Source of the DNA: Patellaria atrata CBS 101060
Lineage: Eukaryota
Assembly: GCA_010093705.1 (NCBI GenBank)
Contig: MU006105.1
Span: forward strand, 62,001 to 113,339
Direction: 5' to 3'
Length of the DNA stretch: 51,339 nucleotides
Position 1 is the stretch's first letter; every line of letters starts with the position of its first letter. The position numbers were made by a program, and so were the translations under genes. The notes beneath the pieces were generated by a model, which saw nothing but the letters and a program-made list of their open reading frames with translations, had not been told where the DNA came from and searched no databases. Positions 24,501 through 51,312 of this stretch are shown here, piece after piece.

Positions 24501-25874
24501 GTTTATTAAATCTTTTTAATCTTATTTATTTATAATTTTTATTACTTTCTTTTTATATTTAATTATAATATTCTTTTATTCTCTTCTTTTTTATTTATAT
24601 TTATATAATCTATTATCTATTTTAACTACTAAGATTACTATATTCTATATAATTATTAATCTTTTATAATAAATTTACTCGTCCTTTATTTCCTCCTTTA
24701 AATCTTAATAAAAGATTATTATTAATAGTTTATTAAATTAATCTAATATTAATATTATCTATTAAAATATAATTATATATTTCGAAATTAATTTCTTTTA
24801 TTTAAGTCTTTAAAGCTTTCTTTTAACTATTTATTACTCGTTAACTTCTCTAAAAATATTTTTAAATATTTTTTTAAACTTTAGAAATAATATAAAAATT
24901 TTATTTATTTTATCTTCTTAATCTTCCTTATTATTTTTAAGATAATCTTATATAATAGATTTAAATTATTCTAAAGCGTCTCCTTTAAGATATATTAATA
25001 TATTAAATATATATTTATTATTATCTATTAGCTCTATTTTTTTATAATAAATTCTTATTTAAATTAAGAATTCTTTTAACTCGTTCTATTTACTATTATA
25101 TAATATAGATTCTTTAATTTTCGTAGTTCACTTTTATAGTAAGAGTAATTATATAATAAATTATTTAAATTAATTCTTAAATTCTTAAATTATTCTTTTA
25201 TTTTTAAATTTATTAATATATTTATATAACGCTTAAATATATTCTTTATCCGTCTTTATATTAATTATAGCTAATAATATTATATTTAGATCTATTATAC
25301 ACTTTCTTACTATATAATAATTATAATATTATAATAGGAGTTTATATTTATTAAAATAGAATTAAATAAATCTAGAAACACGCCTAACTTTTTATTTAAT
25401 ATAGTTAACTATAAAAGTAGGTTTAATAAAGTGATAAAATATATATAATAAAAGTATTTTAAGTTAACGATATAATTTATTAACTCTTTAACTTTAGATA
25501 ATACTTATAATAAGATAAGATATATTATATAAAAATAATATAATAAGTGAAATTAAGTTTAAAACTATAATATTTAAATTTATAAGTAAGATTAATAATA
25601 AAAATAATTATAAAGAATCTAAATATATAAAGAAAAAATTATTCTTAAATATTTTTATTCTTTATAATTAATTTAATTATTTATACTTTTAATTATTCTA
25701 GTTATTCTAATTATTTAGTTATTTAATTATTTTCTACGACTAAAATATCTAAATATCTAAATATTTAAATTATATAATTTATTATTATTTATTTTATTTA
25801 TAATTCTTTTAAATAATATTTCTTTCTTTCTTTTACTTATTATCTATATATTCCTATAATTTATAGTTATAATA
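18534..25874 (-). mobile_element. Full-length RIP-inactivated Ty3/Gypsy family B copy 1 (7.3 kb)
   Basis: 548-bp LTRs at 18534-19081 and 25327-25874, TSD ATTAT, and PPT complement TTATCCTCTCTTTTTTT after 19081. Colinear with 35230-42557. Confidence 0.92.
19197..19799 (+). pseudogene. RIP-degenerated antisense Zn2Cys6/coiled-coil ORF of family B copy 1 (200 codons)
   Basis: Same position and frame as 35854-36423. The six Cys positions are TAT/TGT with x2-x6-x8-x2-x6 spacing, and the middle region is 33 nt longer in frame. Confidence 0.75.
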
Positions 25875-28800: not shown

Positions 28801-31800
28801 TATTAATTATAATAAAAGTATTAACTAAATAAAAAAATATATTAATAAAATTATAATAAATTTCTTTTATTATAATTATTAATTATAAAATATTAAAATA
28901 CTTTATTATAAAATAGTTATTTAATATTAAATAAACTTAATAAAGTAAAACTCTTTTTAATTTCTATTTTTAAATTATATATTAACCTAAAATTTAAAAT
29001 ATTATAGTAAATATATTTTTTTATAAATAAAAAGATTTAAAAATAATAAAAGATAAAAATATTATAATATAAACTTAAATATTAATTAATTTAAATATAA
29101 TAATAATATCTTTTTAACTTTTAATAAAATAATAATTACTATTTAAAAAGATATTTTAAAATAATAAAAAATATATAATCTTTAAAAAGAGAATAATAAA
29201 AAATATACTTTAAAATTAAGATTTAAGACTTAGATAATAATAATTAAAATAATAATAATTAAGTTTTTATAAAAAATAAAAAGAGTTAAATTTTAAAATT
29301 AAAAGTTTATAATAATTAAAATTTTAAAAGAAAGAAATAATATATTAAAAAAATATATTAATTTTAACTTTAAATTAAAGTTTATACTTATTTACTCTAT
29401 AATTCTTATTATAATTAAAAAAGAAAAGAAAGTTAAATATAAAATAAAAGAAAAAGAAAATATATTTATAAATTTAAAATAATATATTTAAAATAAATTT
29501 AATTAAAAATAAAAGCTATTAATAATATATTTATTAATAAATTAAATATTAGAAATAAATTAAAAATGTAACTTTTTATTAATATATTAAAAGTAAATTA
29601 AAATTAAAAAAAGATATTAAAAATTATAAAATAATTTATTTATTAAATTTAATAAATTTATAATTTTAAATATAGATAATCTTAAAATATATTTAATATA
29701 AGATATATATAATATATTAATTATAGAATATTTAGAAATTAAGAAGATAAAAAAACTAATTTAAATATAATATTATTAGTTTAAATTAATAGTTAATATA
29801 AATAAATATATTTAAAATTATTATATCTATTATTAAATATATATATTAAAAGATAAAACTTTTAATTTACTAAAATTATTATTAATTAAAAATAAATATT
29901 AGTAATATATTATTTTTAACTTTAAATTATTTTTTAAAGATATATATAAATTTAAAATAATATTTATAATAGTAAATTAATTAGAAAAAAAAGTAATTTT
30001 ATTTTTCTATATTAAAGATATCTTAATTAAAGTAGTTATAAAGCTATATTATAAATATATATAGTAAATATATAATATATTAAAGATAATAATATTAAAT
30101 TATAATTTATAATTTATTTTTATATTTATAAATAAACTTTATAAATTAATAAAAATAAAATAAAAGTTATTTATAATTTATTATTTATAGATAAATAAAA
30201 ATATAAAGATTATTAATTAATATATAAATTTATAGCTTTAATTCTTTATAAATTATTATTAAAGTAATTAATTAAAATTATTATTTATAATAAATTTTAT
30301 TTAAATTATATTAATTTATAAATTAATAGATATTTTCTTTTATAAATTAAAATTTAATTATTAACTATAAATATATTTTAATTAATAAAAGTAAATAAAT
30401 TTTAATATATATAAGATAATTTAAAAAAAAATAAATAAAGAGAAAATTTAACTATTTATAAAATATATTTATAATATTATTAAATAGATAAAAAATAATC
30501 TAGAAAAAATATAAATAATATAAATAAAATTAATTAATAAGTATTAAAGAAAACTAAATTTTAGATTAAAAGATTATATCTTTATTTTATATAAAGATTT
30601 AATATTAAATAAATTAAATATTAAATTAAACTTTTAAAATATAAATTTATATAAAATAATAAAAATAAAAAAGTATTTTTATATAATTAATTTATTTATT
30701 AATATAAAGATATTAAATATATTTTATATAAATAGATTTTATAAAGTATTAATAGACTTATTATTTAGATAATAGTTAAAATTATTATTATTAATCGAAA
30801 TAGATAATAAGTCTAAATATAAAATAAATAAAATTTTAATAAATTATATCTTTTATAATAAATTATAGTATAAAGTAAATTAAATTAAATATAACTTTAA
30901 TAAAATATAATATTTAATTTATAACTTTATTAAAATATTATATAAACTTAAAAAATTTTATAATTAGAAATTAATTAATATTAAACTATTAATTTAATTT
31001 AAAGAATAACTTTAAATCTTTAAATTTAAAATAAAAAATAAAACTATATAATAATAATATTATTATTAAAAGAAAGAAGTCTATATAAATTTTAAAATAT
31101 TATAAATAAATAATAAATTATATTATAAAATATTATTAATATTATTATAAAAATTAAGGCTAATTTCTACTATTAAAAAGAAGATAATATAATAATATAT
31201 TATAATATTAATTTTATATTTTTTATATTAAATATTTAATTTATTTATAAAAGATTTTTATTAAATTAAATATAAAAAAAATCTCTAAATATTAATTAAT
31301 TAAATAAAAGATAGTTAAATTAAAATTTAATAAAATAAAACTATTATATATAAATATTTAATTTATAATATTATTATTTTTTAACTTAATTTTTATACTT
31401 AATAATTAATAATAAAGATAATTAAAATATAATTATTATAATTATATTATATTATTATAATAATATTATATTATTATAATAATATATTTTTTAATTTTTA
31501 TTTAAAATTAAATTTTAATAAATAGTTTTATAATAAAAAATTATTTATAAAATAAAATTAACTATTTTAAATTAAAAAAATAGTTAAATTTAATATAATA
31601 ATAAATTTTATATTCTTTTTAAAATATAAAGAAAATAATAATTTTTAAATAAATAATTATTTTTTTTAATAAAAAATTTTATCTTTAATTATTAAATTAT
31701 TATTTATAAAATAAATATTAATTTTAAAAATATATAAAAAGTTTAAAAATAATATATATTTTATTTTTTATATTTTTTAATAATAGATTTAATCTTTATA

Positions 31801-34265: not shown

Positions 34266-35229
34266 ATAACTTTAATTAAGGCTATATTTAAAAGTTTAAA
34301 GCTTTAAAATATTCTTAATATAATATAAATTATAAAAGAGTATAATTATAATTATATAATATTATCGCGGCGTTTTTATAATATCACTATTTTTTATAAA
34401 ATAATAATTAAAAACTCTAAATTAATAATTAAGATATAATTTAAAATATTTATTAAATATATTAATTAATTAATTAATTATATTTTTCCTTTTATATTTA
34501 TAATTATACGAAATTTAGTCGATTATATTATTAAAAAAAGATTTAAAAATAACTAAATTATAAAATAATATAAATATTATAAAGATTAATTTAAATTTAG
34601 TTATTTTAGTTCTATTAATTTAATTTATTATAAAATCGATTAAAGATTATTTTATAAGCTTTATTTTAAACTTCTTAAATATAAGCTCGATAAGTTTAAT
34701 ATTTTATTAGAAAATATATATAATATAGATAAAAAGAGCTTCCTTATAAATATACTTAAAAAATTATATAAGATTTATAATAAAGCTACTTTTAAAAATA
34801 GAAAAGTTAAAGAAATTATATAAAATAAAAATTAAAAGTAAATTATAATTTTAGTTACTATTTATATAGATAAAATAATTATCTCTTCTAAAATTATCTA
34901 TCCCTTAATATTAAAAGCGATATAAAATATATAATTAAAAAATTATTAATTAAAAAAGTAAAAGTATTTTTTTACTACTTTACTAATAAAATAGACTAAT
35001 AATAAGTTTAAATTAAGGTAATTAAAGACTATTTTTAACTATTCTATTAAAATTAAAGTTAATTAAGTTTAAAGACTTTTTATTATTAATAGTTATAACT
35101 TTTATATTAATATATCTTTTTTAAAGTATTATATAAATAATAAGATTATATTAGTTAATTATTCTTTTTATTTTATATATAAATTATAACTCTTTAATAT
35201 CTTCTTATTTTCTCCTCTTATTATATATT
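34266..35229 (+). pseudogene. pogo/Fot1 DDE transposase, N-terminal part (RIP-inactivated)
   Basis: De-RIP reading gives MAPIEAAL...TLSRRFRG (HTH), YNMDEKGF (~34718) and RLLIIDGHGSH...PPHSTHRLQPLDV (~35072-35200). Confidence 0.88.
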
Positions 35230-35853
35230 TATTATAACGGGAGTTTATACTTATTAAGATAGAACTAGATAAGTCTAGAAACGCGCCTAGCTTCTCACTT
35301 AACGTGGTTAACTATAAAGGTAGGTTCGGTAAAGTGATAGGATACGTATAATAAAGGCACTTTAAGTTATCGATATAACTTGCTAACTCCTTAACTTCAG
35401 GTACTACTCACAATGAGATAAGACGTACTATATAGAAATAGTGTAATAAGTGAAGTTAAGTTTAAAACCGTAATATCCAAATCTATAGGTAAGATTGATA
35501 GTAAGAATAACTACGAAGAATCTAAATATATAAGGGAAAGACCGTCCTTAAATATTCCTATCCTCTATAGTCAATTTGGGGTGCTCACACCCTTTTAGAC
35601 GTGGTGGCCGTTCTAGACGTGGATCTCCTTCTACGTCCTTTACGTCCACTACGTCTATAACCTGGACGTCCTGGACGTGGTGGACGTGGATCCCCCTTTG
35701 CGTCCTTTGCGTCCATTGCGTCCACAGTTTCTAGTCACGTGACCCCTTGTTNNNNNNNNNNNNNNNNNNNNNNNNNNNNNNNNNNNNNNNNNNNNNNNNN
35801 NNNNNNNNNNNNNNNNNNNNNNNNNNNNNNNNNNNNNNNNNNNNNNNNNNNAG

Positions 35854-36423
35854 ATGCCTCGAACTGAATCTCGCGCAGTTCGTCGTCGGCGTCTCGCAGC
35901 CCAAATTGTGTCCTCCGGTCGACTAATGCCCACTCCCTATTCAACCTGTCGCCGTCAGTCTCGCACTTGCCGTCTCGATCTCTCTTCCGGCTTCTGTTCT
36001 AAGTGTGTGGCTCGTGGTTCAAAATGCGACCTTATGGTGACACAAAAGGACTAGGACAAGCTGAACGCTTCGCGATCTGAGCTTCGTCGTAAGCTCGCTG
36101 AGGCGCGAGTTTCCCGTGACAACGCACACGCCCGGATGTTGGAGGCTTTCGCTCGTGAGGAGCGATTAATGCAGCAGCTCCAACTTCTCGATCAGAAGGA
36201 GGGCGAAATGATTCGTCGTGAGCTTGGTTCCATCGAGGAACTTGAGGCTTTGGAGCGAGCAGCCGAAGGGCAGCAAGCTTCCTCGGTCGCTCCTTCTTCC
36301 TCCGCTGTCGTGTCTCCCTCTAGTTGGTCTAGTTTGGATTTCCCTGCCCTCGAGGGTCTAGAATTCCCTGGTTTTGGCGATGAAACTGTTCAAGTTTCTG
36401 ATCGCAGTTCGTCAAGTGCTTGA
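35854..36423 (+). pseudogene. Antisense ORF of the retrotransposon: 189-aa Zn(II)2Cys6 + coiled coil + acidic/Ser tail, one RIP-type stop
   Basis: ORF-track ORFs 35854-36054 and 36136-36423 share a frame and are separated only by TAG at 36052 (from TGG). With TAT>TGT at 35938 the motif reads C-ST-C-RRQSRT-C-RLDLSSGF-C-SK-C-VARGSK-C, fitting CX2CX6CX5-12CX2CX6-8C. Confidence 0.85.
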
Positions 36424-39400
36424 GTGGTTCCCACGTGTTATCTACGTGTTCGTAGCCTTTCCATTTTACTAAATACTTGTACTGACCATTTACTCGTTGC
36501 AGGTCCAAGATTCGTTCTACCTCGTAGATATCTTCTTCCTCGAGTTCTATAGGTCGTGTTTAGAGTTTAGCATTAGCAGGTGCTAGTTCTAGGAGTGATA
36601 TATGGAAAACTAGGTGTATCTTCATTCCTTATAGTAATTCTAACTTATAATTGACTTTTCCTTTAACCTGTTTAATTCTAAAGGGGCCGATTTTCTTATA
36701 GTCTAGTTTCTTGTTAGGTCGTTTTGTTTTAAGGTTTTTCTATAACAAGTAAACTTTATCCCCCTTTTTAAAGGTCGGTTCTAGCGACCTATACTGATTA
36801 CTGTACTTCGTAGCCCTTATCGTCTAGAAAGCTATATCTCGTGATAACTATACGTGTAATTCCTTAATTTACTCTACTTTTAACGTTACTTCTTATAAAA
36901 TGCTCTAAACTGTTCTCGGCTCACGATATGCTTCCGGTTCAAAACCATAGTTCGTATAGAAGGGTGAAACCTTCGTAGTATCGGATTTCGCGCTATTATA
37001 TGCGAATTATACTATTAGTAATAGCTCTACCCAGTTATTCTACTAGTAATTTATATAATTGCGTAAGTATTACTCTAGAGATTAATTCATTCTCTTAGTT
37101 TAGCTATCCGTTTATAGGTGAAAGCTCGTTAATAGCTTATAGTTTATCTCTAGACCCTATACTAGAGTTTACTAAAACGCTAATTTAAATAGTTTATCTC
37201 TATCTAAGATAATCTCTCTCGGTATCTAGTGATTTACTAGCACTATTTTTATCACTAATACTGCTACTTATAGTGCTATCATCGTTATCTTTACTAGTAT
37301 AAAGTAGGTGAACTTTATTAGTCGTTCTACGATAACTAATATCACGTTATACTCTACTCCTATTACTAGATCTTTAGATCCTAGTAGACCTATAATAAAG
37401 TCTATCGTTATTAAGTCCTATACTCGCTTTAGTGGCTTAATATATTATATCTATCTATAAGGTGCGTGTTTAGCACTCTTATTTCGTGCGTAGTCGTTAC
37501 ACTCTAAAATGACTTACTTTACTATACCTCTTACTCCTAGGAAATAGTAATTCCTTAGGATCCTTTCTAAGGTTTTATTAATACCTTAGTGACTATATAC
37601 TAGTGCTTTATAGATCTCTTTAGTAAGAGTCTTTCGTAGTGTTATTAATATATATACGAGCCTGTCGTATAGTTATATTCCTTAAGCTATTTATATTACC
37701 CTAGAGTCGTTACCCCTTCGGAACTCCTCTATTATACTATTCTTCTAATAGATATCACGAATTTATTATTCTCTCGTGGATTCGATTATTAGCATTATAG
37801 CTAATCTTAGCTAGTTATAGGTGATCGCGTTATTTTCTTTCTTTAGTACCGCGTTATATACCGGTTTCGTTCTTTCTAGGTAGTCGGATCTTCTACTTAT
37901 AGTATCGGCTAGTTTATTTTCGACTTCTAGTCTATAGAATATCTTAAAGTTAAAAGATACGAGTGTTTCTACCTATCTTACTTATCTTCGATTTAACTTC
38001 TTTATTATAAGGAAGTTTATTAGGTTTTAATAGTCTAACTAAACTTTTACAGTGAACTTAGGTCCTTTAAGGTATAACCTCCACTATTCGAATACGTCGA
38101 CAATCGCTAATAATTCCTTATCGTGTATATCGTAGTTTAGCTCTACGGCCGTGAACTTTCGCGAATAAAAGGCTATTAGGTGTAGTCGTCCTTTCTTATC
38201 TAGCTAACTTATATATACACCTAGTATATAGTTAGATACGTTAGTTTCTAGTACTATCAATTTCTCTAGGTCGAACATAACTAGGATAGGTGCTATAGTG
38301 AACTTTTTCTTAAGTTCGTCGAATACTTCCTATACCTTCTCTATCTAAGTAAAGGTATTTTCCTTCTTTATTAATTCTGATAGCGGCGTTATCACCTTCG
38401 AGTACCCTTAGATGAACTTTCTATAGTAGTTCGCGAAGCCTAAGAACGATTATACGTCTTTTACACTTTTTAAAGTAGGCTAGTCTTTAACCGCGGCTAT
38501 TTTCTTCAGGTCTACTCGTATACCTTTAGTGGTAACGATAAAGCCTAGGAATTCCGTTTCTTTAATATAGAATTCACATTTTTCTAGGTGTACTAGGAGT
38601 CTCTTTTCTCTTAATTTCCTTAATACTTTCTTTACGTGCTCCCTATACTCTTCGAGTGTTCCGTTCGTATACACTAGTATATTATCTAGGTAAGTAGTTA
38701 TAAATACGTCTAAATACTCTTTTAGTGTATAATTGATTACTACTTAGAATGTTACTAGGGCGTTAATTAAGCCGAATAGTATTACTATATATTCGTATAG
38801 TCCGAACCTCGTTCTTATAGCTATCTTCCATTCTTCGCCTTCTTTCATTCTAATTCGATAGTAACCGTCTCGGATATCGAATTTCGTAAACCATTTTACT
38901 CCTTATAACCTATCCTAGATTTCTAAGATTAAGGGTAATAGGTATCTATTCTTGACCGTGGCATCGTTTAGCTATCTATAGTCGATATATAATCTTAGCT
39001 TACTATTCTTCTTTAGTATAAATAGAATCGGTGAAGCTATCGGGCTTTCACTAGGTCGTATATATCCCTTTTCTAAGTTAGTGCGGATATATTCTTCGAG
39101 TGCTTTATATTATTCTCTTATTAACGGGTAAATCGGACCGGGTCGTAGTTTCGCACCCTCCTTTAGCACTATTTCATGATCCCACGTCTAGTGATCCGGA
39201 AGTATAGTCGCTATATCTTCCTTAAACAAATCTTTGAACTCGCTATACTCTTCGGGTATCTTAGGTTCTTTAGAAACCTTCTTAGCGTCTATTTTCCTAA
39301 GCTATACTACTCCTACGCTCTTAGGTTTATTTCTATAGATCTTTATTATCTTATAGTGCGAAATACGTCCTACGGATATACTAGCGTCCGTCTACTTAAT

Positions 39401-39874
39401 ACGTCCTATTCGCTTAACTCTATCCTTTCGTGAGGTGTCTTAGTCAATCTAGATACTTCTCGTCTTCCAGTCAATATCTAGGTTCACTGTTTACAATTAG
39501 TCTATCCCTAGAATCATATCTACATCTCCTAGGTCGGTTATAGGGATGCGCTAAGTAGTTACCTTCCCTTATACGTTAACTTCTACCGGTATAGTCCTAA
39601 AGTTGATTAGACCTCGTCTATATCCTATTCCTTCGCCATTTCCTAGTCGCAACGGGACTGGATTTTCAAGTTTCGTGTAAGGTATACTCTTCTTTTCTAC
39701 CCATCGGGGTGAGATGAACGAATCGATGGCGCCGCTATCAACTAGCGCTGTCGTTCTTTTGCCGTGTATGGTAACATCTACCCAAAGCGTCCTATCGTTG
39801 CTTCGTAGGGTTTTGAGGAACTTAGGAGCCATACTTCTCGATCGTTCCTGTCTCGAGTGGCTTAGTAGTTTTTT
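36329..39874 (-). pseudogene. pol: pol polyprotein (PR-RT-RH-IN-chromodomain) with many RIP stops
   Basis: ALVDSGA protease motif, YLD(N<D)ILVY at ~38670-38693, and chromodomain [25 protein letters not shown] at ~36420-36530. The segments checked are in one frame. Confidence 0.92.
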
Positions 39875-41901
39875 GCGTAGCCATGTACTGGGCAACCGGA
39901 TTCCACGCACACGGTCCAGTGTAGTCTATCGTGTCGGTCGTAGTATGGACCTTTACGATATTCCTCGCATTCCAATTCTCGACATTCTCGTTTAATAACT
40001 GCGTTATGACTTGGGTTACTTTTGATTCCTGCTCTCCATCTTTGCGCGGTATAGTAATCGCACCATATCCCTCTAATAGCGCATTGCCCAAAGTCTGTCG
40101 CGTCATATCTAGTGGCTTGCTCGATAGTTTCCCTTTCGTCTCTAAGCGCTTCTATTTCCTATAGGAACACTTTTCCTTTATAGAACTCTTCTTCTAATCC
40201 TCTATAGTACTAGCAATCTATGCTATATTCGCAATCTACCCACGTTACTACTACACATTCTACGTGGATTAGCGCCTAGTAATGTCGTCTACACCTAAGT
40301 TTATCTATACAATTGAAACTGTCGTACTTCCCATAGTCGCCTACTGGTGGTTCGAGTCCTCGATTCTTTTTAAGTGTTTTCGTTTCACCTTCGTGTGTTT
40401 TGCACCCTTTTACCTGGCACTCGCTTTCAGGTAAATGTATATATATAGGGTCTCGGTCCCTGAACTTTGCTATAGCCCTCTACTATTTATAGTATAAACA
40501 GTCACCCTCTTTACATTGTATCCATCGAAAGGCTAAACAGTCTTCTACCCTTGGTGCAAGGTTCAGTTGTTGTTCTTCGCTCGCATCGGTATTGGGTTCG
40601 GGTTCGATCGGTTCCCAATCTTGAAATTCTTGTTCGAGCCGTTGTTGTTGTTCCATAATCCGGTACGTGAGGCCTAGTCCGTCAGATGTTTGTACTCTGA
40701 TTCTCTAACCTTGATTCTGTGCTGGGCATTCTAATGCTGTGTGTGTACATATGTTTCCACACGCCCAACATTGTTGGTTGTCTAAACGTTGTCGGAGTGT
40801 CTCCTCCTCCAGCCAGTTTCCTGCTGTTGGGAACGGCGTTGGTGGCCTGCTCACCCCCGTCTAGTATGGTAGCGGCATTTCCTCAATCTCTTCTTCTTCA
40901 AGCGATGAGACTGGTGATGGTGGTGTCAGGTGCATGACTCTGAGTTGCATACGTCGGTTGTGTCGCGAGGATGGTTGCGTCTTCTATGGGCAGTCTCTCT
41001 TGAAATGTCCCACTTCTCCGCATTGTAGATATGCTCTATTCGTAAAGCGCTCTTTTTCTTCTTAGGTGAACTGTCGTTGTTTCTTTGGCTTCTTTTGTTT
41101 TGTTTGTTGTAGTCGGTCGAGGTCCATCGGGTCCCCCTGATCTTGTCTATTCGTGGCCCTTGTTACCTTCTTTCTGTATCTAACCACAACATTCTTCCGT
41201 CCTCCCTTTTCCTATCTACGCTCGTATAACCTGTTATCTATTCTAACTGCTAAGGTCACTGCGTCCTGCATTGTTGTTGGTCTCTCATAATGAACCCACT
41301 CGTCCTTCACTTCCTCCTTCAAACCTTGATAGAAAGCGATCATCAGTGGTTCATCAGGCTAACCCAATGTTGATGCTGCCTGCTAGAATGTAGTCGCATA
41401 CTTCGAAGCTGACCCTTTCTGCCTGAGTCCTTGAAGCTTTCTTTCTGCTGCCTGTTGTTCGTCGACTTCCCCAAAGACGTTCTTGAGCGTCTCTTCGAAC
41501 CTTGGAAACGACTTGAAGATCTCCACTGTTTCGTCTTCCTGGTGTTCTTCACTGTTCTCAAGATAGTCTCGTGCAATGGGTTCGAACCATTCCAAAGCGT
41601 CTCCTTTAAGGTACGCTGATGCATCGAGTACACGTTCACTATCGTCCGTTAGCCCTATTCTTTTATGATAGATCCTCACCTGGGTCAAGAATCCTCTCAG
41701 CTCGTCTCGTTTACCATCGTATGGTGCGGGTTCTTTGACTTTCGCGGTTCGCTTTTGTGGTGAGAGCAACTGTACGGTAAGTTGTTCGAGCTGGTCCCTA
41801 AGTTCTTGAACTGTCCCTTCGTTTTCGAGTTCGCTGATGCGTTTGTACAACGCTTGGATATGTTCTTTATCCGTCTTCGTGTTGGCTGCGGCTGACGACA
41901 T
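39862..41901 (-). pseudogene. gag: gag, 679 codons, with a few in-frame RIP-type TAG stops
   Basis: Retrotrans-gag motifs (YDGKRDELRGFL, YLKGDALEWF, LRQKGSASKY, FYQGLKEEVKD, GDPMDLD) and CCHC knuckle (C)LQCGEVGHFKRDC. The frame is continuous to TAA at 39862-39864. Confidence 0.9.
39868..39874 (-). promoter_or_regulatory. Candidate -1 ribosomal frameshift heptamer A AAA AAC at the gag/pol junction
   Basis: gag ends GCA AAA AAC TAC TAA. The protease frame is -1 relative to gag, and the heptamer fits X XXY YYZ. Confidence 0.75.
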
Positions 41902-42314
41902 CGTGTCTAGGTCTGTTATACGCTTTCCTACTGCGTGGTAGTTATAATGTTATAACGGGAGTCTATACTTATCAAGACAGAACTGGATAAGTCTAGAAAC
42001 GCGCCTGGCTTCTCACTCAACGTGGTCAACCATAAAGGTAGGTTCGGCAAAGTGATAGGATACGTATAACAAAGGCACTTCAAGTTGTCGATACAACTTG
42101 CTGACTCCTTGACTTCAGGTACTGCTCACAATGAGACAAGACGTACTGTATAGAAACAGTGTAACAAGTGAAGTCAAGTTCAAAACCGTAACATCCAAAT
42201 CTATAGGTAAGATTGATGGTAAGAATAACTACGAAGAATCTAAATACATGAGGGAAAGACCGTCCTTAAATATTCCTATCCTCCATAGTCAATTTGGGGT
42301 GCCCACACCCTTTT

Positions 42315-42461
42315 GGACGTGATGGCCGTTCTGGACGTGGATCTCCTTCTACGTCCTTTACGTCCACTGCGTCCATAACCTGGACGTCCTGGACGTGGTG
42401 GACGTGGATCCCCCTTTGCGTCCTTTGCGTCCATTGCGTCCACAGTTTCTAGTCACGTGAC
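42315..42461. promoter_or_regulatory. LTR U3 motif array: 2 x 67-bp unit of 3 GGACG plus 3 inverted CGTCC (9-bp spacing), then palindrome GTCACGTGAC
   Basis: GGACG at 42315, 42324 (GGCCG), 42333, 42382, 42391, 42400. CGTCC at 42352, 42361, 42370, 42419, 42428, 42437. E-box palindrome at 42452-42461. The same array is in the other LTR at ~35597-35743. Confidence 0.75.
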
Positions 42462-42557
42462 CCCTTGTTACTGGTTTCATCCGTGGTTCTCCCGAGTGGT
42501 GTTCCTACTTTCCCCTCACTCGTTGTCTGCATGTTTCTACAACTTGTGGCCGTAACA

Positions 42558-43485
42558 ATATTATAATTAAAATCTTAATAACTTTTTAAGTTAATTATAA
42601 AGTATATCGAATATTATAAAATAGAACTTTTTTAAGCTATTCTAGCCTATTTACTAGAAGGCTTTTATAGAGAAAAATATCCTTAAAAGCTTTAAAAAAA
42701 TAGATATCTCTCTATATAATTCGAGTGAAATACTATAAGAATTAGTAAAGCCGAAGAGGTAACTAGTTAGTTAAATAGGCGGTAGATTAAGCTTAAGTGA
42801 ATTAGCTAAATTAGTGTTATTAGAGAAAGATTGGAAACGTATAGAGAAGAAACTAGAGACCGTTATTTCTAATGTAATACACCCTATCGTCGAAGAGCTA
42901 AAGGCGAAGTTTCAATTCCTCTCTACCTCTAATACTATCCTCCAACAACAGAACTTCGGTTTGATTAAGGCTCTTGAGGGCGAGAAGAAGCGACGTAAAC
43001 GGCAGAAGCCTCTTTTACAACGAGTAATTAGCACAGAGGATGGTGGCGCGGTGTTTTGGAGCCCTCAAAAAATTACCCAAGCGCGCGATTTCCTACGGCA
43101 AAAGGAGGAAGATGAAGCTGCAGAAAAAGCTCGTAAAGTAAATAATAAGCTTCAGCAACAGCTACGTAAAGAGGAGAAAGAAGAACAAGCTAAAGAGCGC
43201 AAGCTTCAACGACAAAAAGATAAGGAGGAGAGGGAGAGGGTAGCTGAGGCAAAAAACGCTCAGCAACAAATTACTGTAGAAGCCAAACAAGCTAAACAAA
43301 AAGCTCAAAAAACACGTAGACCCCCTCAAAAACCGAAGCAGAAGAAGCAGATTGTTATACCACCAGCCATAGAACTCTTAGATAATATTACTGAGGTAGT
43401 AGAGGTAGAAACGGTCAATCCCACGACTGGTCGGCCCCGACGGCAATCACGACTGCCACAGAGATTTCAGAGCCCTGATATATAG
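42558..43485 (+). pseudogene. pogo/Fot1 transposase, C-terminal part (open 42814-43485)
   Basis: Continues the frame broken at 35229 (de-RIP KRNFFKLFWPAYQKAFTEKNILKGFEKTGI). It contains GAVFWSP and a K/E/Q-rich coiled coil typical of fungal pogo transposase tails. Confidence 0.88.
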
Positions 43486-45154
43486 ATAGACGGAAAGTAC
43501 AGCTTCTTATTCACAACATCATGAAATTTAGTATAGATATATCAAATATGGAGCGAGTTGCATCATTTTCAAAATCACTCTATGGGGTGCGATTTTTGGG
43601 GGGCGACTGTGCACGGTCTGAAACCGTGCACGACCTGAACAAGACCCTTACCCGGTGACGAGCTTCACCATATAACAATATGCACGTAAGATTATCAAAG
43701 AGGGGAACCACAACCTATCCCCAGTGGTAGAAGACATGTTCTAGGTATCTCGAAGGACGAATCTCACGACCCGGCAGTTGAAGACTCCCAAAGGTTAGGG
43801 CCATTTTGCGAAACTTCTTTTATTATGGTTGTACATCCTCAGCGTCGTAATTGGGCTTATAATACCTGGAAGCAAGTGGAATGCTCCCAATTGTCTCCCA
43901 TCAACCATCAACTTGAGTCCGTTGACTGGACTAAAGATCCTGGTAATAACGAGGAGGACTTCTCCCAACAATATAGATCGTCTCCTTGGCCTTTTTTTTT
44001 CCCCAGGGTTAGCTAACGAATAAGGCTATAGCAGCACGGGAGTTGGTAATTACAAGGTTCAATCTCGCTAAACACTTATATTCCCCTTTCAAATCTCATA
44101 TTTTCAGATACACATGTCTCATGAACTTTGGAAGTTATATTAGTGGTTCTCCCTATTCGGAGTTTTCAATAACTGTCCTACTTACCATAAAGGGTAAGAG
44201 ACGGGAAAATTTGAGGGTAGTATGAGCACTACACCGAGGAAATAGATTTAGGATCAAGCCATATTCTTCTACGTCTTGCAGCTACCATATGACGGTGTCC
44301 AACGAATCGAATGGGCCTACATCTACCTTGCATAATTTCAAAATATGGAGGTTCAGTGACTGTAGAACAAAGAACGGAAGAACTTCAAGAAGTGAGTAAG
44401 TGGAAGACCTCCCCGGGTTGGCTTGCATGATCGGCATAGCTAAGTGTTCCCAGTACTTACAAAAGGAGGCATCTGTCTCTCATGATTCTTGATCTGTAAA
44501 CAAGGTATTCCCAGTCGAAACCTTAGTTCATTCTGACCGGTTGGAGATGAATTCGGCTCGGCCCATCCGAAACCGCGTGCAGCAGTACAGTGGAAAGCAG
44601 AGCGCCGGATGCGTCAGTTAAATGCATCGAAAACTGCATAGATACGTGTTAGGACATGTGATCACTAGGTTATCGGATATATGTCTCCCAAAGATGTATT
44701 AATAATCTAAACCTGACCCCATTGCGATGGTCTTGCGGTAACAGCGGATAGGACGAAGTTAGACAAGGGACAATCACAGGATAGATAAGAGTACCATCCC
44801 TTTTTCATATTTTACTCAGCATCGCCTGATTGGTACGGGGCATGCAAATATATGGTGCAGTATGGTAAATATATGCGGATCTTCGTTAAGCTGTAAAACG
44901 ACTGAAGGGATTTCCCTTGATACTCAGGGTTATACCCTTTCTTAACCTTTTCGAGGACTAAGTGTACAAGGCCTATACTCCTCGCCCGAGGTCTCCTTAA
45001 AGTAATCTCATATCTAGAGTGGATTATTATATAAGTTGAATGAACTCGTCGTTTTCTGCTTCAGTTGAGTGCTTTTCTCCTGATAATTTCTCCGCCTATT
45101 ATAATACTATATCTTTGAACCAAATTGTTAAGCTCTCTGACGGGCATATCATCC

Positions 45155-46927
45155 ATGACAATAGTGATGGATATATCTAGTGATATTTCTTTCATTCAGT
45201 CGCTCTCTTTTAAAGTTATTTTTACTGTAGTCGTTGCTACCTATAGTGTTTATCTGATTGGTCTTGGAATATATCGCGTCTATTTCGATTCTTTGTCCCA
45301 TTTTCCTGGCCCTAAACTCGCCGCATTCACCACATGGTATCAAGCGTATTACGATATATACTATGTTGGACAGTGGTTTAGGAAACTGGATAAACTTCAC
45401 GATCAGTATGGACCTATTATTCGTATTAATCCGCATGAGCTGCACATTTCGGATCCCAACTTTATTGATATTCTTTTTACGGGCTCAACGCAGAAACGAG
45501 ACAAGTATAAATGGTTCGGGCGATCAATTCTCTTACCAGACTCTGTTGGTGCAACTATACCTCATGATCTTCATCGGAAGCGGCGAGCGGCAATTAATCC
45601 CTTTTTCTCGAAGGGCAGAGTAGGCCACCTAGAACCTACAATCCAAGGTATCATAAGCACTCTTCTCCAACGGATGAGTGAGTATGGTGCTAATGAAGGT
45701 GTGATGCGTATGAGCCTGGCCTATAGAGCAACAACATGTGATGTGATCACTGGTTACTCATTTGGAAAGTCTACGAACTATCTAAAGCAACAGGATTTCA
45801 ATATAGCATTTTTCAGCGCTGTTGATGCTATGTTTGCATTAGCATGGCCATTAACATATATATGGTGGCTAGGCCCACTGCTAAATAGCACTCCTCCCTT
45901 AATAATGGGATATGTGAACCCTGGTTTTAAGTCCCTCCGGGGGATGCAGGTAGTAAGTGGATGACCGTCCAGGAAAAAAAGCAGTGTAACTGACAACTTC
46001 AGGAATGGATAAAACAGATTGAGGATATCAGAACATCACCGGATCTAAAATCGAACAATTCAACTATTTTTCATGGTGTGCTTAATAGTAAGTTACCACC
46101 GGAGGAGAAGTCGCCAAGTCGTCTATATCAGGATGCACAGCAGCTCGTTTTCGCGGGACAAGATACAACAGGTATGCAATACATGATCAGTTCATTTAAT
46201 TTACCCTTTCTCATTCTTATAGCATACACCTTATCTGCCATCACATTCGAGCTTCTAGCATACCCAGACAAGCTTGTGAAGCTGAAAGCGGAGCTTGCGG
46301 CCGCCTTTCCAAATCCAGATAATATTTCAGCTGCCGTATGCGAGAATCTTCCATATCTTACTGCTGTTATTCAAGAAGGTATCCGTCTCCACCCTGGCGG
46401 CCTTGTGCGTATGACCCGCGTTGCACCTCATCAAACCATGATATATTCCAACAAGAAGGAAAACCGTGAATGGACTATTAAGCCAGGAACTCCTGTTAGC
46501 ATGACCGCATGGACTGTCCAAATGAATCCTGATATCTTCCCTGCTCCTAAGAAATTTGAACCAGAACGTTGGATTGATAATCCCCACCTAGACAAGTACC
46601 TGATTGCGTTTTCTAAAGGTACTAGAATCTGTGTAGGGTAAGTTTAAGTTAACTATCTATTTTGATGTCTGGTTTTATACCTACTAAAGTTCCTCTAGTT
46701 TCCATCTCGCCTACTTGGAGCTGTACCTCGTCCTAGCGGGAGTTTTTCGCCGCTATGATATGTATGATGGAACGGGTAAGCAGAGTAACCCGACGCTGGA
46801 GCTATATGACACTATTAGAGAACGTGATATCGATCCTGTGGTGGATCATATTATACCGTATCCCGCAGCTGGAAGTCAAGGGTTGAGACTTGTGATAAGA
46901 CATGGATCCCAGGGCGTGGAACACTAG
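45155..46927 (+). CDS. Cytochrome P450, ~536 aa, 4 exons (45155-45952, 46003-46171, 46223-46637, 46699-46927); resembles CYP58/trichodiene-oxygenase-like clan
   Basis: N-terminal TM helix, FPGPKLAA, YGPIIRINPHELH, I-helix AGQDTT, K-helix EGIR, PERW and heme motif FSKGTRICVG. Three GT-AG introns (50, 51, 61 nt) restore one frame. Family assignment is from motif recall only. Confidence 0.93.
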
Positions 46928-47871
46928 TACACACCATGTCGAAACATTCCGAGATGTTAGAATATTGGTCTCAGACTGAAGATGTGAGTAGTAAAGGATA
47001 ATCAAGCATACTTCCTACCGCCTTACGCTAGTTGTTAGCACCATTCCTTTGACACAGCTGCCTGGTAGGCATAAACGCTGTTGCCTACTTGTCCTCATGT
47101 ATTTAAACGCTCGTTAGAACAGTCATTAAACAATCAAGCGATATCTCCCCATCGATTTGTGCATCACAAATCTCACACTTCTTTCTTCTTATCAGACTTG
47201 CGTATCTGCTTGCACTTATGGCAAGCTGCGACGTACTTTTCCACGTAGTCTCGTATTTAATGCCAATACCAGTGCCTAGATACGTGTTCGAACGTATAGT
47301 GTTTGCCTATATGTCCCCCTACTTTTGAGTCGTGATTCAGTCTGAGTATCCTTGCTTTAAGCATATCATCGTTTGGATGCCAGATCTTGCCCTTGTAAAC
47401 GAGCCTGTTATTTTACACTTTATAGTCGGAAAGTTCAATTTTGAACCCAGCTTTCCTTTAGTAGTTTTGTTGAAGTATGGGCCGTGGATATGTCAGCTGT
47501 CAGCCACAGAGTAGTATGGAGCACTAAAAGTCTATCTTCAAAAGTTATCTGTTTTCAGTATCTGTTTTGTCCTCAACCGACTCCACTATCTCAACAGATA
47601 TCTCAACGACTATTAGCTATATTGAGATCTGGATACGTGTTCTCTGTAACTCTTCAGTATAGATAAACGTTCCTTCAGTAGATAGATAGAAATCAAGCGA
47701 TTATCTTGATTATTCAGCACCCTCACGTCTGACATATAACTTACCCCTATTTGCCCAAATTTCGATCAAATATCTCCGTTCTTTCGACCGGTAGATGCTC
47801 GTTTTAGCCACTGCTGCCACGGATCAAGATGTCGTCTTCACAACGAACAACAAACTACACCCAGGTGATAC

Positions 47872-48350
47872 TGTTACGGCCACAGGACAACGGGAACGCA
47901 TCACCAGTGGGGTGGTAGTACCAAGTGTCGGAGCGGAACAACCAGCACGGAAGTCACGTGATGTGATCCCAGGTGATCCCATTGATCTCAGTTTTGAGAA
48001 GTGGGATCAGACGGGAGCAGTGGGAGCAACGAGGCCACGTGATGTGATCCCAGGTGATCCCATTGATCCCAGTTTCGAGAAGTGGGATCAGACGGGAGTA
48101 GTGGGAGCAACACCCAGTTATAGCTAGGAAGAAGGAATACTTAAGGACGCTCCTTTACGCATGTATTTAGATTCTTCGTAGTTATTCTTACCATTGATCT
48201 TACCCATAAGATTGGATGTTACGGTTTTAGACTTAACTCTTACTTGTCACTCTATTTCTATACAGTGTTATCTTGCCTCTCTTGTAAGCTGTGTGATTGA
48301 GTTAAGGAGTCAGTAAGTTGCATCGTTAACTTAAAGTACAAGCCTTATAC
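47872..48350 (+). mobile_element. Truncated LTR of a family-B-related element, not obviously RIP-mutated
   Basis: Starts TGTTACGGCCACA like the family B LTR. 48135-48350 aligns to the reverse complement of 42065-42277 (CATGTATTTAGATTCTTCGTAGTTATTCTTACCAT...). It is cut at the LINE poly(T). Confidence 0.88.
47955..48111 (+). repeat. 2 x 76-bp direct repeat (81-bp period) in the U3 of the LTR
   Basis: Units at 47955-48030 and 48036-48111 differ by three C/T changes. Confidence 0.92.
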
Positions 48351-48356
48351 TGTTTC

Positions 48357-49550
48357 TTTTTTTTTTTTTTTTTAATTCCGTTGTATTGTATTACCTACAA
48401 TACTGCGCATGCAGCCTTTAAGCTATGGCGCAACTCCCTATATACATAAATCCCTTTTCAGGGCCCTCATATGCTTAGTAAAGTCTTTAGTGGCTTAACC
48501 ACTGATATTTTATTTGTAAAGGAAAGTCAAGAAGTTTAAACTCTATACAAAGGAAATTGTTGAAAAACCATCTATTCTTCCTCTTTACCATCTGTTTTTT
48601 ATTCCCAGTTTTATGCCATGCATCCTGTTGTCTTCTGTAGACTCTATACTTCCACTCTATCTGCATCTCCTGCGTGCATCAGCCATCTAGCAGTAGAGAT
48701 TTGAGTTCTTGCTATATATTTAAATACCACCTGTTTGCCTAACTTTGTGCAAAAAAGCTTTGTCATTGTTAGCTTTGATCTCAGTTGTTTCCTCATTTCC
48801 TTACGCTCTTTTGAGTAGTTTGCACAATGTAAGATAAGGTGTGTTGGTGTTTGAAGTGATTGACAGTCTCTGAAGCACTTCCCGTCTTCATCTTTCCCAA
48901 TCACCTTAGAGTAAGACTTAAAGAATCCAATACCAGTCTTGAGTTGAAAATAGGCTGCTTGGATCTTTTTCTGGACATTAGATTTGGGTATACTGAGTGA
49001 GAAACGCACATGATCTCTGCAAATGCGTGTATAATGTTTGCCTTGTCTCTTGCTATTGGCCTCCCAGCTTTGTTTCCAATTAGATAAGATCTTTTCCTTG
49101 CATTTTCGTTTAATATAACTGAGTGATGTGAATGAAGTGCTTATAGGATTGTGGTCCAGTCCTTTCTTAGCCAGTTTATCTGCTATATCATTCCCAAAGA
49201 TGTTCTTATGGCCAGGAACCCAGCTAAAGGTAATTTTCATTTCCCATTCATTAGTGAGAGTATTGCATAGGTCAGTTATCAGCACACTTAGTTCTTGTCC
49301 TCCATCAAGGCTGTTCTTTTGTAGCCTCTTAAGTGCCGCTTGGCTGTCCACAAAAACCCACAGGTTTTTGGCAATGGATTGTCCTTTCTCACATTGGGTC
49401 TTTTCTCTTTCAAGTGCTTTAACGATCGCAAATAGCTCTGCATCCATAATCTCAATGCTATCTCCTAAGTTCCAGTTGCTGGCAAACAAAATGCGCTGAT
49501 TGTTTCCTATCTGGCATGCCCCTGCAGCATTTCTGTTGCCTTCTTTACTG
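48357..49550 (-). mobile_element. 5'-truncated non-LTR retrotransposon (Tad-like LINE): RNase H, CCHC, 3' UTR and poly(A)
   Basis: T17 at 48357-48373 is the poly(A) tail; a ~270-nt 3' UTR and the ORF2 C-terminus follow. Confidence 0.88.
48644..49549 (-). pseudogene. LINE ORF2 C-terminal fragment (RNase H plus zinc knuckle)
   Basis: DAELFAI, FVDSQAAL, WVPGHKNIFGNDIADKLAK and C-x3-C-x7-H-x4-C (CFRDCQSLQTPTHLILHC). Breaks just inside the first catalytic DGS motif. Confidence 0.88.
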
Positions 49551-49743
49551 TGACTTTCGAAACATCGTGAACTCTTGGCTACACCACATCATCGCACACA
49601 ACACCCCGCCAGAATCATCGCATTTTTATGTTTCTTGATGTAGCTTTACAACCAAATAACTGTTGAAGCTGAATATTATATCTATTTAAAGCCCTGAATA
49701 AACGTTATCTCGTGAACCATTCAGATTCTCTGTTGTTACAGAA

Positions 49744-51312
49744 ATGACCCCTCGCTCATCGACTAGAGTATCAAAACAGAGCGCTCGCGCCATTGAAGCT
49801 GATGAGTCTTCGTCATTAACGAGAAAGCGTGCTACATCAGGCTCAAATAGTACTTCAAATGCACCTACAAAGAAGAATAAGAAGTCAGCCTCTAAAGGGT
49901 CCAAAAAGGCGAGCTTAAAAGCGTCAAAAGATACTGAAAATCCGGAGGCTACTAACCAGGCTGCTGCCGACGCGTTGCTCGGCCTTTCTACCCAGCAATC
50001 TGTCGTAGAGGAAGACCAACTCTCATTCTCAAGTGGACGAGATGAAGTTGATGATGATGCTGTACTTTTAACTCAACAGCCTGAGTCTCAGCCTAAGCCT
50101 GAGCCTGAGCCTGAAGCTGTCAAGTTTACGTTCAGTTATAAGGCCGTAAACGGAAAGGAAAAACTCCCGGGTTCCTTTACTGCTGTTCGAGATACAGAGA
50201 CATTTTTTATTATGGAGTTAGAGCGATTACAAAGGCGAGTAGTTGAAAAGACCTACCCACGAGAATGGCTTGTTCTCAAGCTTGAGGCGACAGCTAGCTA
50301 CGAGAAGATGAGAGCGTCTGATACTCAAACTTCTGAAGTTGAAAGCGGCCCTGATCTGGAGGAACTGATGGGTTTGATAAGACTATGGCGATCCAACTGG
50401 CCAAACCGTGCCTTGACGCTTGATTTCGTCTTACACGTTGAGGAGATTGAAGATAGTAGGTCAGATTCTGAGCCTGAGCCTGAGCCCCAGCAGCAATCTG
50501 GCCGTAGTAAAACACTGCGGAAGTCAGCGACTCAGCAACAGTTAGCTAGCACCGCAGAGAAGCTGGCTGCCGAAGAGGCAGCTGGCAATTTTGTTCACGT
50601 TATAACGGACCGCTGGATTTGCGAAAACTCCCATTGCAAGAACAAAGGACATGTCTGTTGGCAAAATAAGCAATCTATAACTGCTGCTGACATTGTCGTC
50701 AACCACTATCCGTGTAGTGCAGAGATACTAAGGCGCTGGAATAGTGAGATAAAGAAAGGTTTTGCATCAGTCGAGGTGCCGTCGCAGAATATCATAGTTC
50801 AGATGGTTACTTGGAAAGAAGCCCTTGGTCGGAAACGTCAACAAATTGAGGCTTCAGTAACGCCTACAGTAGCTTCCCAGGCGTCCGTTGATTCGGGAGC
50901 CTCTAGTCAGATCAACCAGCTACTACAGGTGTTGTTAGTATCTCAAATCCGACAGATGGCACCACCTGAAGCACCACCTCCAGCACCTCTCTTCCCTCCC
51001 CAAAAGACCCAATTGTCCCACGCCCCTCCTCCCAATTCGAGCCCTATAAGTTCAGACACAGATCCAGTTAAGTTGCTCGCAGAGTTCTTTGAGTGGTTGA
51101 AGCTACAACCTGGTTTTAATACACAGCAGCAGGTGAATATATTAGAAGAGACGAAGGTTAAGATGGTGGAAGAGCAGTGGAGCTTAGATTCGTTAAAACC
51201 GAGGAAGCCAGATGAGGGAATCTCACAAATAACTTGGGAGGAATATGGTTTTAAAATAGGGTTACTTGTGCGAATAAGAGCGAAGATATCTGACTTTAAG
51301 CGCTTAAGATAA
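49744..51312 (+). CDS. Intronless 522-aa hypothetical protein with a Cys/His cluster and helical C-terminal domain
   Basis: Uninterrupted ATG-to-TAA ORF of 1569 nt. Basic disordered N-terminus, WICENSHCKNKGHVCW...HYP, Pro-rich linker and a compact C-terminal domain. Confidence 0.8.
   Translation: MTPRSSTRVSKQSARAIEADESSSLTRKRATSGSNSTSNAPTKKNKKSASKGSKKASLKASKDTENPEATNQAAADALLGLSTQQSVVEEDQLSFSSGRDEVDDDAVLLTQQPESQPKPEPEPEAVKFTFSYKAVNGKEKLPGSFTAVRDTETFFIMELERLQRRVVEKTYPREWLVLKLEATASYEKMRASDTQTSEVESGPDLEELMGLIRLWRSNWPNRALTLDFVLHVEEIEDSRSDSEPEPEPQQQSGRSKTLRKSATQQQLASTAEKLAAEEAAGNFVHVITDRWICENSHCKNKGHVCWQNKQSITAADIVVNHYPCSAEILRRWNSEIKKGFASVEVPSQNIIVQMVTWKEALGRKRQQIEASVTPTVASQASVDSGASSQINQLLQVLLVSQIRQMAPPEAPPPAPLFPPQKTQLSHAPPPNSSPISSDTDPVKLLAEFFEWLKLQPGFNTQQQVNILEETKVKMVEEQWSLDSLKPRKPDEGISQITWEEYGFKIGLLVRIRAKISDFKRLR

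Follow-up and report, generated by a model that had tools for sequence, protein, structure and literature searches.

Direct-then-inverted word arrays in the U3 region of a fungal chromovirus family, with an antisense zinc-cluster gene as a candidate partner

Within a 51,339-nucleotide stretch of Patellaria atrata CBS 101060 DNA (GenBank assembly GCA_010093705.1, contig MU006105.1, forward-strand positions 62,001 to 113,339; here referred to as the window), a family of Ty3/gypsy chromoviruses carries arrays of short repeated words in the U3 part of its long terminal repeats (LTRs), together with a gene antisense to gag-pol that encodes a small protein of the Zn2Cys6 type. A preliminary description of this DNA had proposed that the arrays share one layout and change their word between subfamilies, and that they are candidate sites for the encoded protein. 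The shared layout and the subfamily-specific words are borne out here, and two metagenomic relatives (loci L001 and L002) repeat the layout with new words. As for function, our working reading, which we hold tentatively and consider quite possible, is that the arrays are a U3 module that activates in both directions and is bound by the protein that the element itself encodes. Each array, in which one short word is densely repeated, first directly and then inverted, with about one helical turn between repeats, would be the upstream activating module of U3 in this chromovirus family. Its ligand would be the antisense gene product, predicted to be a small Zn2Cys6 coiled-coil homodimer with an acidic tail, which would recognize the word cluster in double-stranded DNA and drive the genomic RNA as well as its own gene. 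If the architecture of the protein stayed the same and only its reading residues changed, a constant layout with a varying word would be expected. The arrays and the DNA-binding and dimerizing half of the gene would form a cassette that is exchanged by recombination between otherwise near-identical elements, so that each subfamily carries a matched array and protein set.

The element here referred to as copy 2 (35232-42555) is a Ty3/gypsy chromovirus on the minus strand, with paired LTRs and with Pfam matches on that strand to gag, protease, reverse transcriptase (RT), and a C-terminal chromodomain. Its 606-bp 5' LTR (41950-42555, minus strand), delimited by LTR alignment and by a direct repeat with 35232-35531, and the visible part of its 3' LTR (35232-35751, minus strand) are 100% alike over 520 bp in a transition-blind alphabet in which C>T and G>A are collapsed. 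Between them, gag-pol (36329-41949, minus strand) is broken by repeat-induced point mutation (RIP), and its parts are recognizable as gag (41383-41949; Retrotrans_gag, E of 1.3e-7), protease (39569-39925; aspartyl protease, E of 1.7e-7), RT (38480-38743; RVT_1, E of 8e-11), and chromodomain (36329-36559; Chromo, E of 2.8e-18). The U3 of the 5' LTR contains the A-type array, which consists, as the preliminary description had it, of two units with (T)GGACG three times and then CGTCC three times at 9-bp spacing. The units are 67 bp long and together span 42314-42442 (82% matches in Tandem Repeats Finder [TRF]). On the plus strand, GGACG starts at 42315, 42333, 42382, 42391, and 42400, with a GGCCG variant at 42324, and the phased CGTCC words start at 42352, 42361, 42370, 42419, 42428, and 42437; 11 of the 12 phased words are exact. 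The 3' LTR repeats this array at 35596-35724 with RIP-type changes. TGGACG has 17 matches in the window against 1.75 expected, a number reached by none of 100 shuffles, and 15 of the 17 lie inside the two copy 2 arrays. When the tandem units of copy 2 are compared, 1 of 30 phased core positions differs, versus 14 of 37 other positions (Fisher p = 0.0008), which indicates that the words are held more tightly than the spacers.

A third LTR type, free of RIP, lies on the plus strand from 47872 to about 48465 (3' end approximate). It has no element-internal sequence on either side and is flanked by a P450 gene and a non-LTR RNase H open reading frame (ORF), and we therefore read it as a solo LTR. 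Its B-type array (47963-48111) again has two units, of 81 bp each (47944-48105; 96% matches in TRF), and each unit consists of CACGTGA, then TGATC(C/T)CA three times (TGATCCCA), and then GGGA(T/G)(C/T)A three times. The plus-strand starts are 47964, 47974, 47983, 48045, 48055, and 48064 for the first word and 48003, 48013, 48022, 48084, 48094, and 48103 for the second, so that the two-unit array first noted for this LTR is confirmed with a spacing of 10, 9 and then 10, 9 bp in each unit. Against the other LTRs, the solo LTR is 86% alike over 336 columns (transition-blind) in its TATA-proximal and R/U5 half only, the half for which the earlier statement that the rest of the LTR can be aligned holds.

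Copy 1 is the same element as copy 2 (97% identity over 6,583 columns in the collapsed alphabet) and has been affected by RIP far more. It comprises a heavily mutated 3' LTR (18534-19079), an interior (19080-25328), and a 5' LTR (25329-25872), all on the minus strand. Each of these LTRs is shorter than its copy 2 counterpart by about 62 bp and holds only one array unit, at about 18897-18974 in the 3' LTR and about 25690-25767 in the 5' LTR. A RIP-aware merge of both LTRs reads, on the sense strand, TAGACG, TAGATA, TAGATA, and TAGTCG, followed by five CGACCA-compatible words, with spacings of 8, 8, 9 and then 8, 8, 9, 9 bp. The left arm thus has three GGACG-compatible words and one TAGTCG, and the array represents a third word mix (GGACG-like, GGTCG, and CGACC). 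This array is a real variant, because the central A of the right-arm words cannot arise from T by RIP; derivation from a copy 2 array by RIP was rejected on the transversions at the word centers. The same derivation is countered by a contig from another organism's DNA run, which follows the LTR up to 42297 and then continues with an un-RIPed array of TGGTCG at a 9-bp period. CGACC-type words are also seen in loose ends of contigs from the window organism's own DNA runs. The single RIP-damaged unit that had been described for copy 1 is therefore present and distinct, but it is a mix of one-base variants and not an unrelated motif.

On the U3-5' side of the array, all LTR types of the window have a palindromic box, TCACGTGA (42453-42460 in the copy 2 5' LTR, 35735-35742 in its 3' LTR, and 18977-18984 in the copy 1 3' LTR). 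Its four matches in the window (18977, 35735, 42453, and 47954; 0.04 expected) each adjoin an array in an LTR, in agreement with the preliminary description. Sense-strand left-arm 8-mers are TGGACGCA for the A type, TGATCCCA for the B type, and TGATCGCA for L001, and on comparison they read as a series of small steps of one or two bases rather than as unrelated motifs. A further LTR fragment of the family, at 16093-16451 on the minus strand, has been brought to a GC content of about 2% by RIP; the CACGTGA box appears there as TTATATAA, and the array region has a 7-nt period (ATAATTA three times) with no clean fit to the other types. In other copies, represented in contigs of the DNA runs X1 and X2 from the same organism, the LTR flanks are conserved and the whole array region between them is skipped or replaced (joints 42297>42486 and 47890>48124), and chimeric joints connect A-type and solo LTRs (42004>48128 and 42116>48193).

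The position of the arrays is constant with respect to the TATA-like box. In the sense direction, U3 is ordered as a conserved 13-nt end, about 70 to 95 nt of subfamily-specific sequence, the CACGTGA box, the array of 100 to 150 nt, about 30 nt, and a TATA-like box. This last box is TATTTAAGG in the sense promoter of copy 2 (42264-42272, minus strand; LTR position 284, about 30 bp downstream of the array) and TACTTAAGG in the solo LTR (48138-48146, plus strand; LTR position 267). It is kept in all LTR copies, and L001 has a similar one. The arrays, at LTR positions of about 110 to 255 (A) and 92 to 240 (B), precede the box at 284 and 267, respectively, as expected of U3 repeats. On the other side, the antisense ORF begins about 117 nt (copy 1) or 106 nt (L001) from the U3 end of the 3' LTR, and the L001 array (1705-1833) lies 170 to 300 bp upstream of the antisense ATG at 2005. 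The array of the 3' LTR, a few hundred base pairs upstream of the antisense gene, thus has the position that an activating sequence common to two divergent putative promoters would have. In copy 2, a run of 100 Ns (35752-35851) hides the U3 5' end of the 3' LTR and the polypurine tract; taken at face length it would leave about 16 nt between LTR and ATG, and it probably stands for a longer stretch.

The antisense ORF lies between pol and the 3' LTR in both full copies of the window and in L001 and L002. In copy 2 it is an accessory ORF of 189 codons (35854-36423, plus strand) just inside the 3' LTR, with a tail-to-tail overlap of about 90 nt with the end of pol, and its product would consist of a basic N-terminal extension, a Zn2Cys6 cluster, a long helix, and an acidic and hydrophobic tail. 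This copy is dead: TAT (35938-35940) stands where relatives have Cys 1 and TAG (36052-36054) where they have Trp, and both lesions (Cys 1 to Tyr and Trp to TAG) are RIP-type. A remnant of the ORF in copy 1 occupies 19197-19790 (plus strand), in which the Met of the MPTP motif would be at 19269. A RIP-aware six-frame scan found no third copy in the window (next-best z of 5.2 versus 10 to 13 for the real copies). Annotated P. atrata CBS 101060 proteins are 91 to 94% identical to the copy 2 ORF. Most relatives have the basic N-terminal extension (MPK...RRxRLA), and since the window ORF has it too, the annotated Patellaria starts at MPTP are probably too short. One public protein, P0003, equals the copy 2 ORF minus the stretch around the in-frame TAG, and its gene model seems to avoid a RIP-made stop by splicing.

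When 1.84 billion cluster representatives were searched with a profile, 811 relatives were recovered at an E of ≤0.001 and 216 at an E of ≤1e-10, all of them small proteins; those with a named source come from Dothideomycetes, Lasallia (lichen fungi), Watsoniomyces, and one species of Xylariales. Members of the family are also present in the genomes of Zopfia, Periconia, and Botryosphaeria, among others. The six cysteine columns are invariant or nearly so in the family alignment. The pattern C-x2-C-x6-C-x5-12-C-x2-C-x6-8-C is found in 147 of 187 family proteins, 97 of which have the spacing x2-x6-x8-x2-x6. That the element encodes a Zn2Cys6-type protein, as first proposed, is thus upheld by intact relatives that keep the six cysteines and the coiled coil. 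A profile search of the PDB gave PUT3 (E of 0.02) and LAC9 (E of 0.025). In an AlphaFold2 model (mean predicted local distance difference test [pLDDT] of 83), short helices at residues 6-11 and 25-30 precede a long helix at 40-119, the order of a DNA-binding domain followed by a dimerizing helix. The first 25 rows of a Foldseek search with this model are all Zn2Cys6 DNA-binding domains at weak E values of 0.1 to 3, with LAC9 superposing at a root mean square deviation of 1.7 Å over 32 residues. The loop between the second and third cysteines is highly variable across the family (2.6 to 3.4 bits at each of six positions), and the scaffold is conserved. In Gal4-type proteins, this is the loop that reads DNA.

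We also modeled the protein as a homodimer. The model scored 0.58, versus 0.00 for the best of three controls, with runs agreeing on at least 95% of contacts and a partner pLDDT of at least 86. This mark is reached by 21 of 30 proteins solved as same-chain pairs and by none of 23 solved as single chains (17 of 29 and 0 of 30, respectively, among eukaryotes), although the pass may reflect only likeness to known structures, because dimeric Zn2Cys6 structures have already been solved. In the dimer model of P0002 (residues 38-109), contacts satisfy i + j of about 138, indicating that the helices pair antiparallel. By our estimate from this model, at 1.5 Å per helical residue, such a dimer would set the two zinc clusters at opposite ends, about 80 to 100 Å or 24 to 30 bp apart, which falls inside the arm-to-arm distances of the arrays (19 to 55 bp).

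Gal4-type activators (Gal4, Ppr1, Put3, Hap1, and Leu3) offer a likeness in architecture, with a six-cysteine cluster, a linker, and a dimerizing helix. Their upstream activating sequences are likewise paired or clustered short half-sites in direct or inverted orientation, and according to the relevant part of one study, zinc-cluster factors act through dense clusters of such half-sites and drive expression that climbs with site number, while Ppr1 binds inverted half-sites 6 bp apart, or 9 bp center to center (PMC10250231). The protein considered here differs in having only about 165 to 190 residues and no middle homology region that we could see, its array words lack CGG, and its dimer model is antiparallel. 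Moreover, the loop position occupied by Lys18 in Gal4 is mostly G, N, or S in the family.

An antisense gene at this position has a precedent in brtn, which is reportedly due to Zhao et al. (2011, Virology 417:248). As the citing papers present it, brtn is an extra gene antisense to gag-pol between pol and the 3' LTR of Boty-like chromoviruses of Botrytis cinerea and Sclerotinia (PMC8365987, PMC7264820, PMC4227169, and PMC5987419). The likeness is one of position in a fungal chromodomain element; the passages of these papers that concern brtn mention neither a zinc cluster nor matching LTR arrays, and in one of them the function of such antisense ORFs is given as not known (PMC7264820). No Botrytis or Sclerotinia proteins appear among the 52 listed matches to our family.

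A metagenome scan yielded at least two loci with relatives, L001 and L002, and a scan of viral contigs yielded none. L001 has an intact antisense ORF 40% identical to the query, followed by an LTR (about 1445-1898) and then by gag on the other side. Within its U3, TGCGATCA occurs eight times in 1705-1833, four of them direct at a 10-bp period and the others scattered in both orientations; the entire locus has 11 matches versus 1.7 expected. L002 is a RIPed element with a protein of 28% identity and with RNase H and RT pieces on the minus strand, and its array (2590-2715) is also palindromic with a 9-bp period, yet made of other words. The layout is accordingly seen in four gene-bearing element types and one solo LTR, in a comparison that took in no gene-less element. 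Two side observations concern L001. Directly after the zinc cluster there is an apparent short intron (2201-2258, gt...ag, about 57 nt), and P0026, P0027, and P0029 have at the same site an insertion resembling an intron that was left unspliced; since the genomic RNA of a retroelement is the other strand, introns in an antisense gene can be retained. In addition, L001 1-2537 joins a 3' interior with the antisense ORF, one LTR, and a gag in the same orientation, and may represent two tandem elements with an LTR in common, a one-LTR circle, or a collapse of the two LTRs during assembly.

The two full elements of the window allow array and protein to be compared together. Patellaria paralogs fall into two types in their N-terminal 100 residues, with a near-identical C-terminal tail. 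The copy 2 ORF is of the A type (45 of 45 N-terminal residues RIP-compatible with P0002, versus 38 of 45 with P0008), and the copy 1 ORF is of the B type (44 of 45 with P0008, whose 11-codon insertion it shares, versus 37 of 45 with P0002). An A-type protein is thus paired with GGACG/CGTCC in copy 2 and a P0008-like protein with the GGTCG/CGACC mix in copy 1. The difference between the two copies is concentrated in one block, 35532-36231, which spans the U3 arrays, the 5' part of U3, and codons 1 to about 125 of the ORF. This cassette holds the N-terminal extension, the cluster, the linker, and most of the helix, and it ends just before the invariant RRELGSIEELE motif. It has 10 to 21 transversions per 100 bp as well as indels, versus 0 in the next 300 bp and 0 to 2 in most other bins; the matching U3 block of the 5' LTR (42332-42531) has 8 to 11 transversions per bin and 56 gap columns. 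On the genomic RNA, the cassette is one contiguous piece that begins at the TATA-proximal array edge, crosses the U3 start, and extends into the ORF. Word and protein therefore differ together between subfamilies, which suggests a private regulator-and-site pair.

Several observations weigh against such a pair. The co-variation of array and regulator that had been anticipated is seen in one comparable pair of elements, but it is confounded by the single block 35532-36231: because arrays and cluster adjoin on genomic RNA, a single recombination could explain why they diverge together, and the fairly even divergence (10 to 21% in every bin) points away from focused selection and toward import from a diverged lineage. 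Another mosaic block, milder than the first and located in the RT region (38132-39131; 1 to 8, mostly 3 to 8, transversions per 100 bp), implies that recombination between subfamilies is not confined to the cassette of U3 and ORF. Copy 1 keeps a GGACG-compatible arm, yet its cluster differs from that of copy 2 at 6 of the first 31 residues, and the window encodes no partner protein for the solo LTR at 47872. Regarding the protein, Pfam Zn_clus (PF00172) gave no match to the window ORF at an E of 0.1 and only weak matches in 6 of 10 family members (best E, 1.8e-4), and Gal4-type dimers pair their helices in parallel, unlike our model. Regarding the sites, CGG or CCG is not the repeated word; by eye, CCG occurs once in the 143-bp A array and once in the L001 array, and CGG occurs once in each B unit. 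A strict grammar of three direct and three inverted words in every relative had to be rejected, as L001 has four direct and scattered inverted copies. Lastly, all three Patellaria LTR types retain TCACGTGA, which neither L001 nor L002 has, and its retention suggests that a host factor contributes as well. Taken together, a co-evolving regulator and array remain a reasonable reading, which the window supports circumstantially.

The chief alternative, which we regard as possible though somewhat doubtful, is that the arrays are enhancers bound by host transcription factors, in a U3 that turns over fast and is swapped by recombination, and that the neighboring Zn2Cys6 gene has another job, acting on host genes or in integration or silencing. 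The words themselves are compatible with this, as they are not CGG half-sites and those of the A type hold ACGT cores (CCACGTCC and GGACGTCC) beside the kept TCACGTGA box, a sequence class that is read by bZIP and bHLH host factors; linkage by itself would account for the joint divergence. Nor are such U3 regions without parallel. For the U3 words of Sireviruses, we know of no cognate element-encoded factor. As the relevant part of Bousios et al. (2010; PMC2829016) describes them, these are clustered short words of dyad symmetry, or palindromic motifs, shortly before a conserved LTR TATA box, with no matching encoded factor reported; the words, with a CGG-CCG signature, are conserved across very divergent elements, the opposite of the turnover seen here. 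The same source gives Tnt1 and Retrolyc1 as homologous elements that differ in a U3 stretch with repeated cis-acting motifs, so that a subfamily-specific U3 is known (PMC2829016). Both are plant Ty1/copia elements, unlike the fungal chromoviruses of this study. Their motifs are read by host factors, and the elements are not known to encode a DNA-binding protein. Host factors fit less well with three features of the arrays. Every change of word would require a new factor with the same direct-then-inverted layout at 9 to 10 bp, the words step by one or two bases and are not unrelated motifs, and among the gene-bearing elements compared, with the solo LTR, the layout has been met wherever the gene has.

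The arrays might instead be structural palindromes that act as RNA hairpins or DNA cruciforms and not as protein sites, for example, in 3'-end formation, packaging, template switching, or small-RNA production, the RNA being the 3' end of the genomic RNA or the antisense transcript. All arrays do fold far better than shuffles (z of -4.2 to -10.4), with -76.2 kcal/mol (z of -10.4) on the plus strand and -60.1 kcal/mol (z of -6.3) on the minus strand for the A type, whose spacers also pair on the plus strand via G-U pairs; the plus- and minus-strand values are -66.2 and -55.3 kcal/mol for the B type, -74.4 and -73.8 for L001, and -46.7 and -40.3 for L002. Any inverted array folds well by construction, however, and pairing is not kept on one consistent strand across variants: the ORF strand is favored by 16 kcal/mol in the A type and by 6 kcal/mol in L002, the sense strand is favored by 11 kcal/mol in the B type, and neither strand is favored in L001. 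The arms of copy 1 are not complementary, as GGACG-type and CGACC words are both purine centered, a difference that RIP cannot make. Core words are conserved over spacers, and Rfam has no match within 35000-48600. We consider this explanation improbable. Least likely of all, and in our view very unlikely, is a functionless by-product of slippage or template-switch expansion in an unstable U3, for although unit number varies (one in copy 1 and two in copy 2 and the solo LTR) and other copies in the same organism's DNA runs skip or replace the array region, the layout recurs in relatives with proteins only 28 to 40% identical, its position is fixed relative to the TATA-like box, and the core words are again conserved over the spacers.

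Returning to the reading in which the element's own protein binds the arrays, the anatomy, the protein family, the limits of the cassette, and the recurrent layout are observed here, and we infer that the arrays are protein sites, with the antisense product as ligand and activation as the outcome. An extension of it, which we think rather unlikely as it stands, is that array and gene form a self-contained, swappable regulator-and-operator cassette and that co-resident subfamilies are mutually orthogonal, like phage immunity groups. New specificities would then arise as the word changes by one or two bases at a time and the cluster loop and the dimerizing helix change to match, and the helix changes would also block cross-dimerization. 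Transcription of LTR retrotransposons is generally attributed to host factors, and self-encoded transactivators are a hallmark of complex retroviruses. Examples are Tas of foamy viruses and Tax of HTLV-1, which has three 21-bp repeats in U3; these transactivators act through repeated U3 elements, and in HTLV-1 an antisense gene, HBZ, is driven from the 3' LTR. Such systems differ from the one described here in belonging to vertebrate retroviruses with unrelated proteins. We are not aware of any described LTR retrotransposon that encodes a sequence-specific DNA-binding activator, and among the papers listed by our literature searches, none deals with an LTR retrotransposon that has a zinc-cluster gene or with such a gene paired with LTR arrays. 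If the proposal is right, this would be the first LTR retrotransposon known to encode a sequence-specific transactivator, a fungal counterpart of foamy virus Tas. Such elements would also amount to a library of naturally occurring, orthogonal factor-and-site pairs, would be a simple system in which to follow the joint change of DNA-binding specificity and sites, and would suggest a new reason for the coexistence of transposon subfamilies.

The window as a whole is fungal DNA with extreme RIP, in which GC content drops to 2 to 3% at 14 to 18 kb and 31 to 34 kb. Besides the 100-base run at 35752-35851, Ns occur at 15223-15322 (100 bases) and 17757-17886 (130 bases). Gypsy-type remnants on the plus strand at 3463-5195, 7072-8853, 11037-11760, and 27444-29070 are 75 to 93% alike to the copy 2 pol (transition-blind); they were rejected as family members, as scans found no related LTR or antisense ORF with them. 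The P450 gene (45119-46927, plus strand) extends over several frames, consistent with introns, and the RNase H ORF of the non-LTR type element lies at 48644-49588 on the minus strand. Two further plus-strand ORFs, one of 536 codons (49702-51312) and a Lys/Glu-rich one of 236 codons (42775-43485), are both without a Pfam match.

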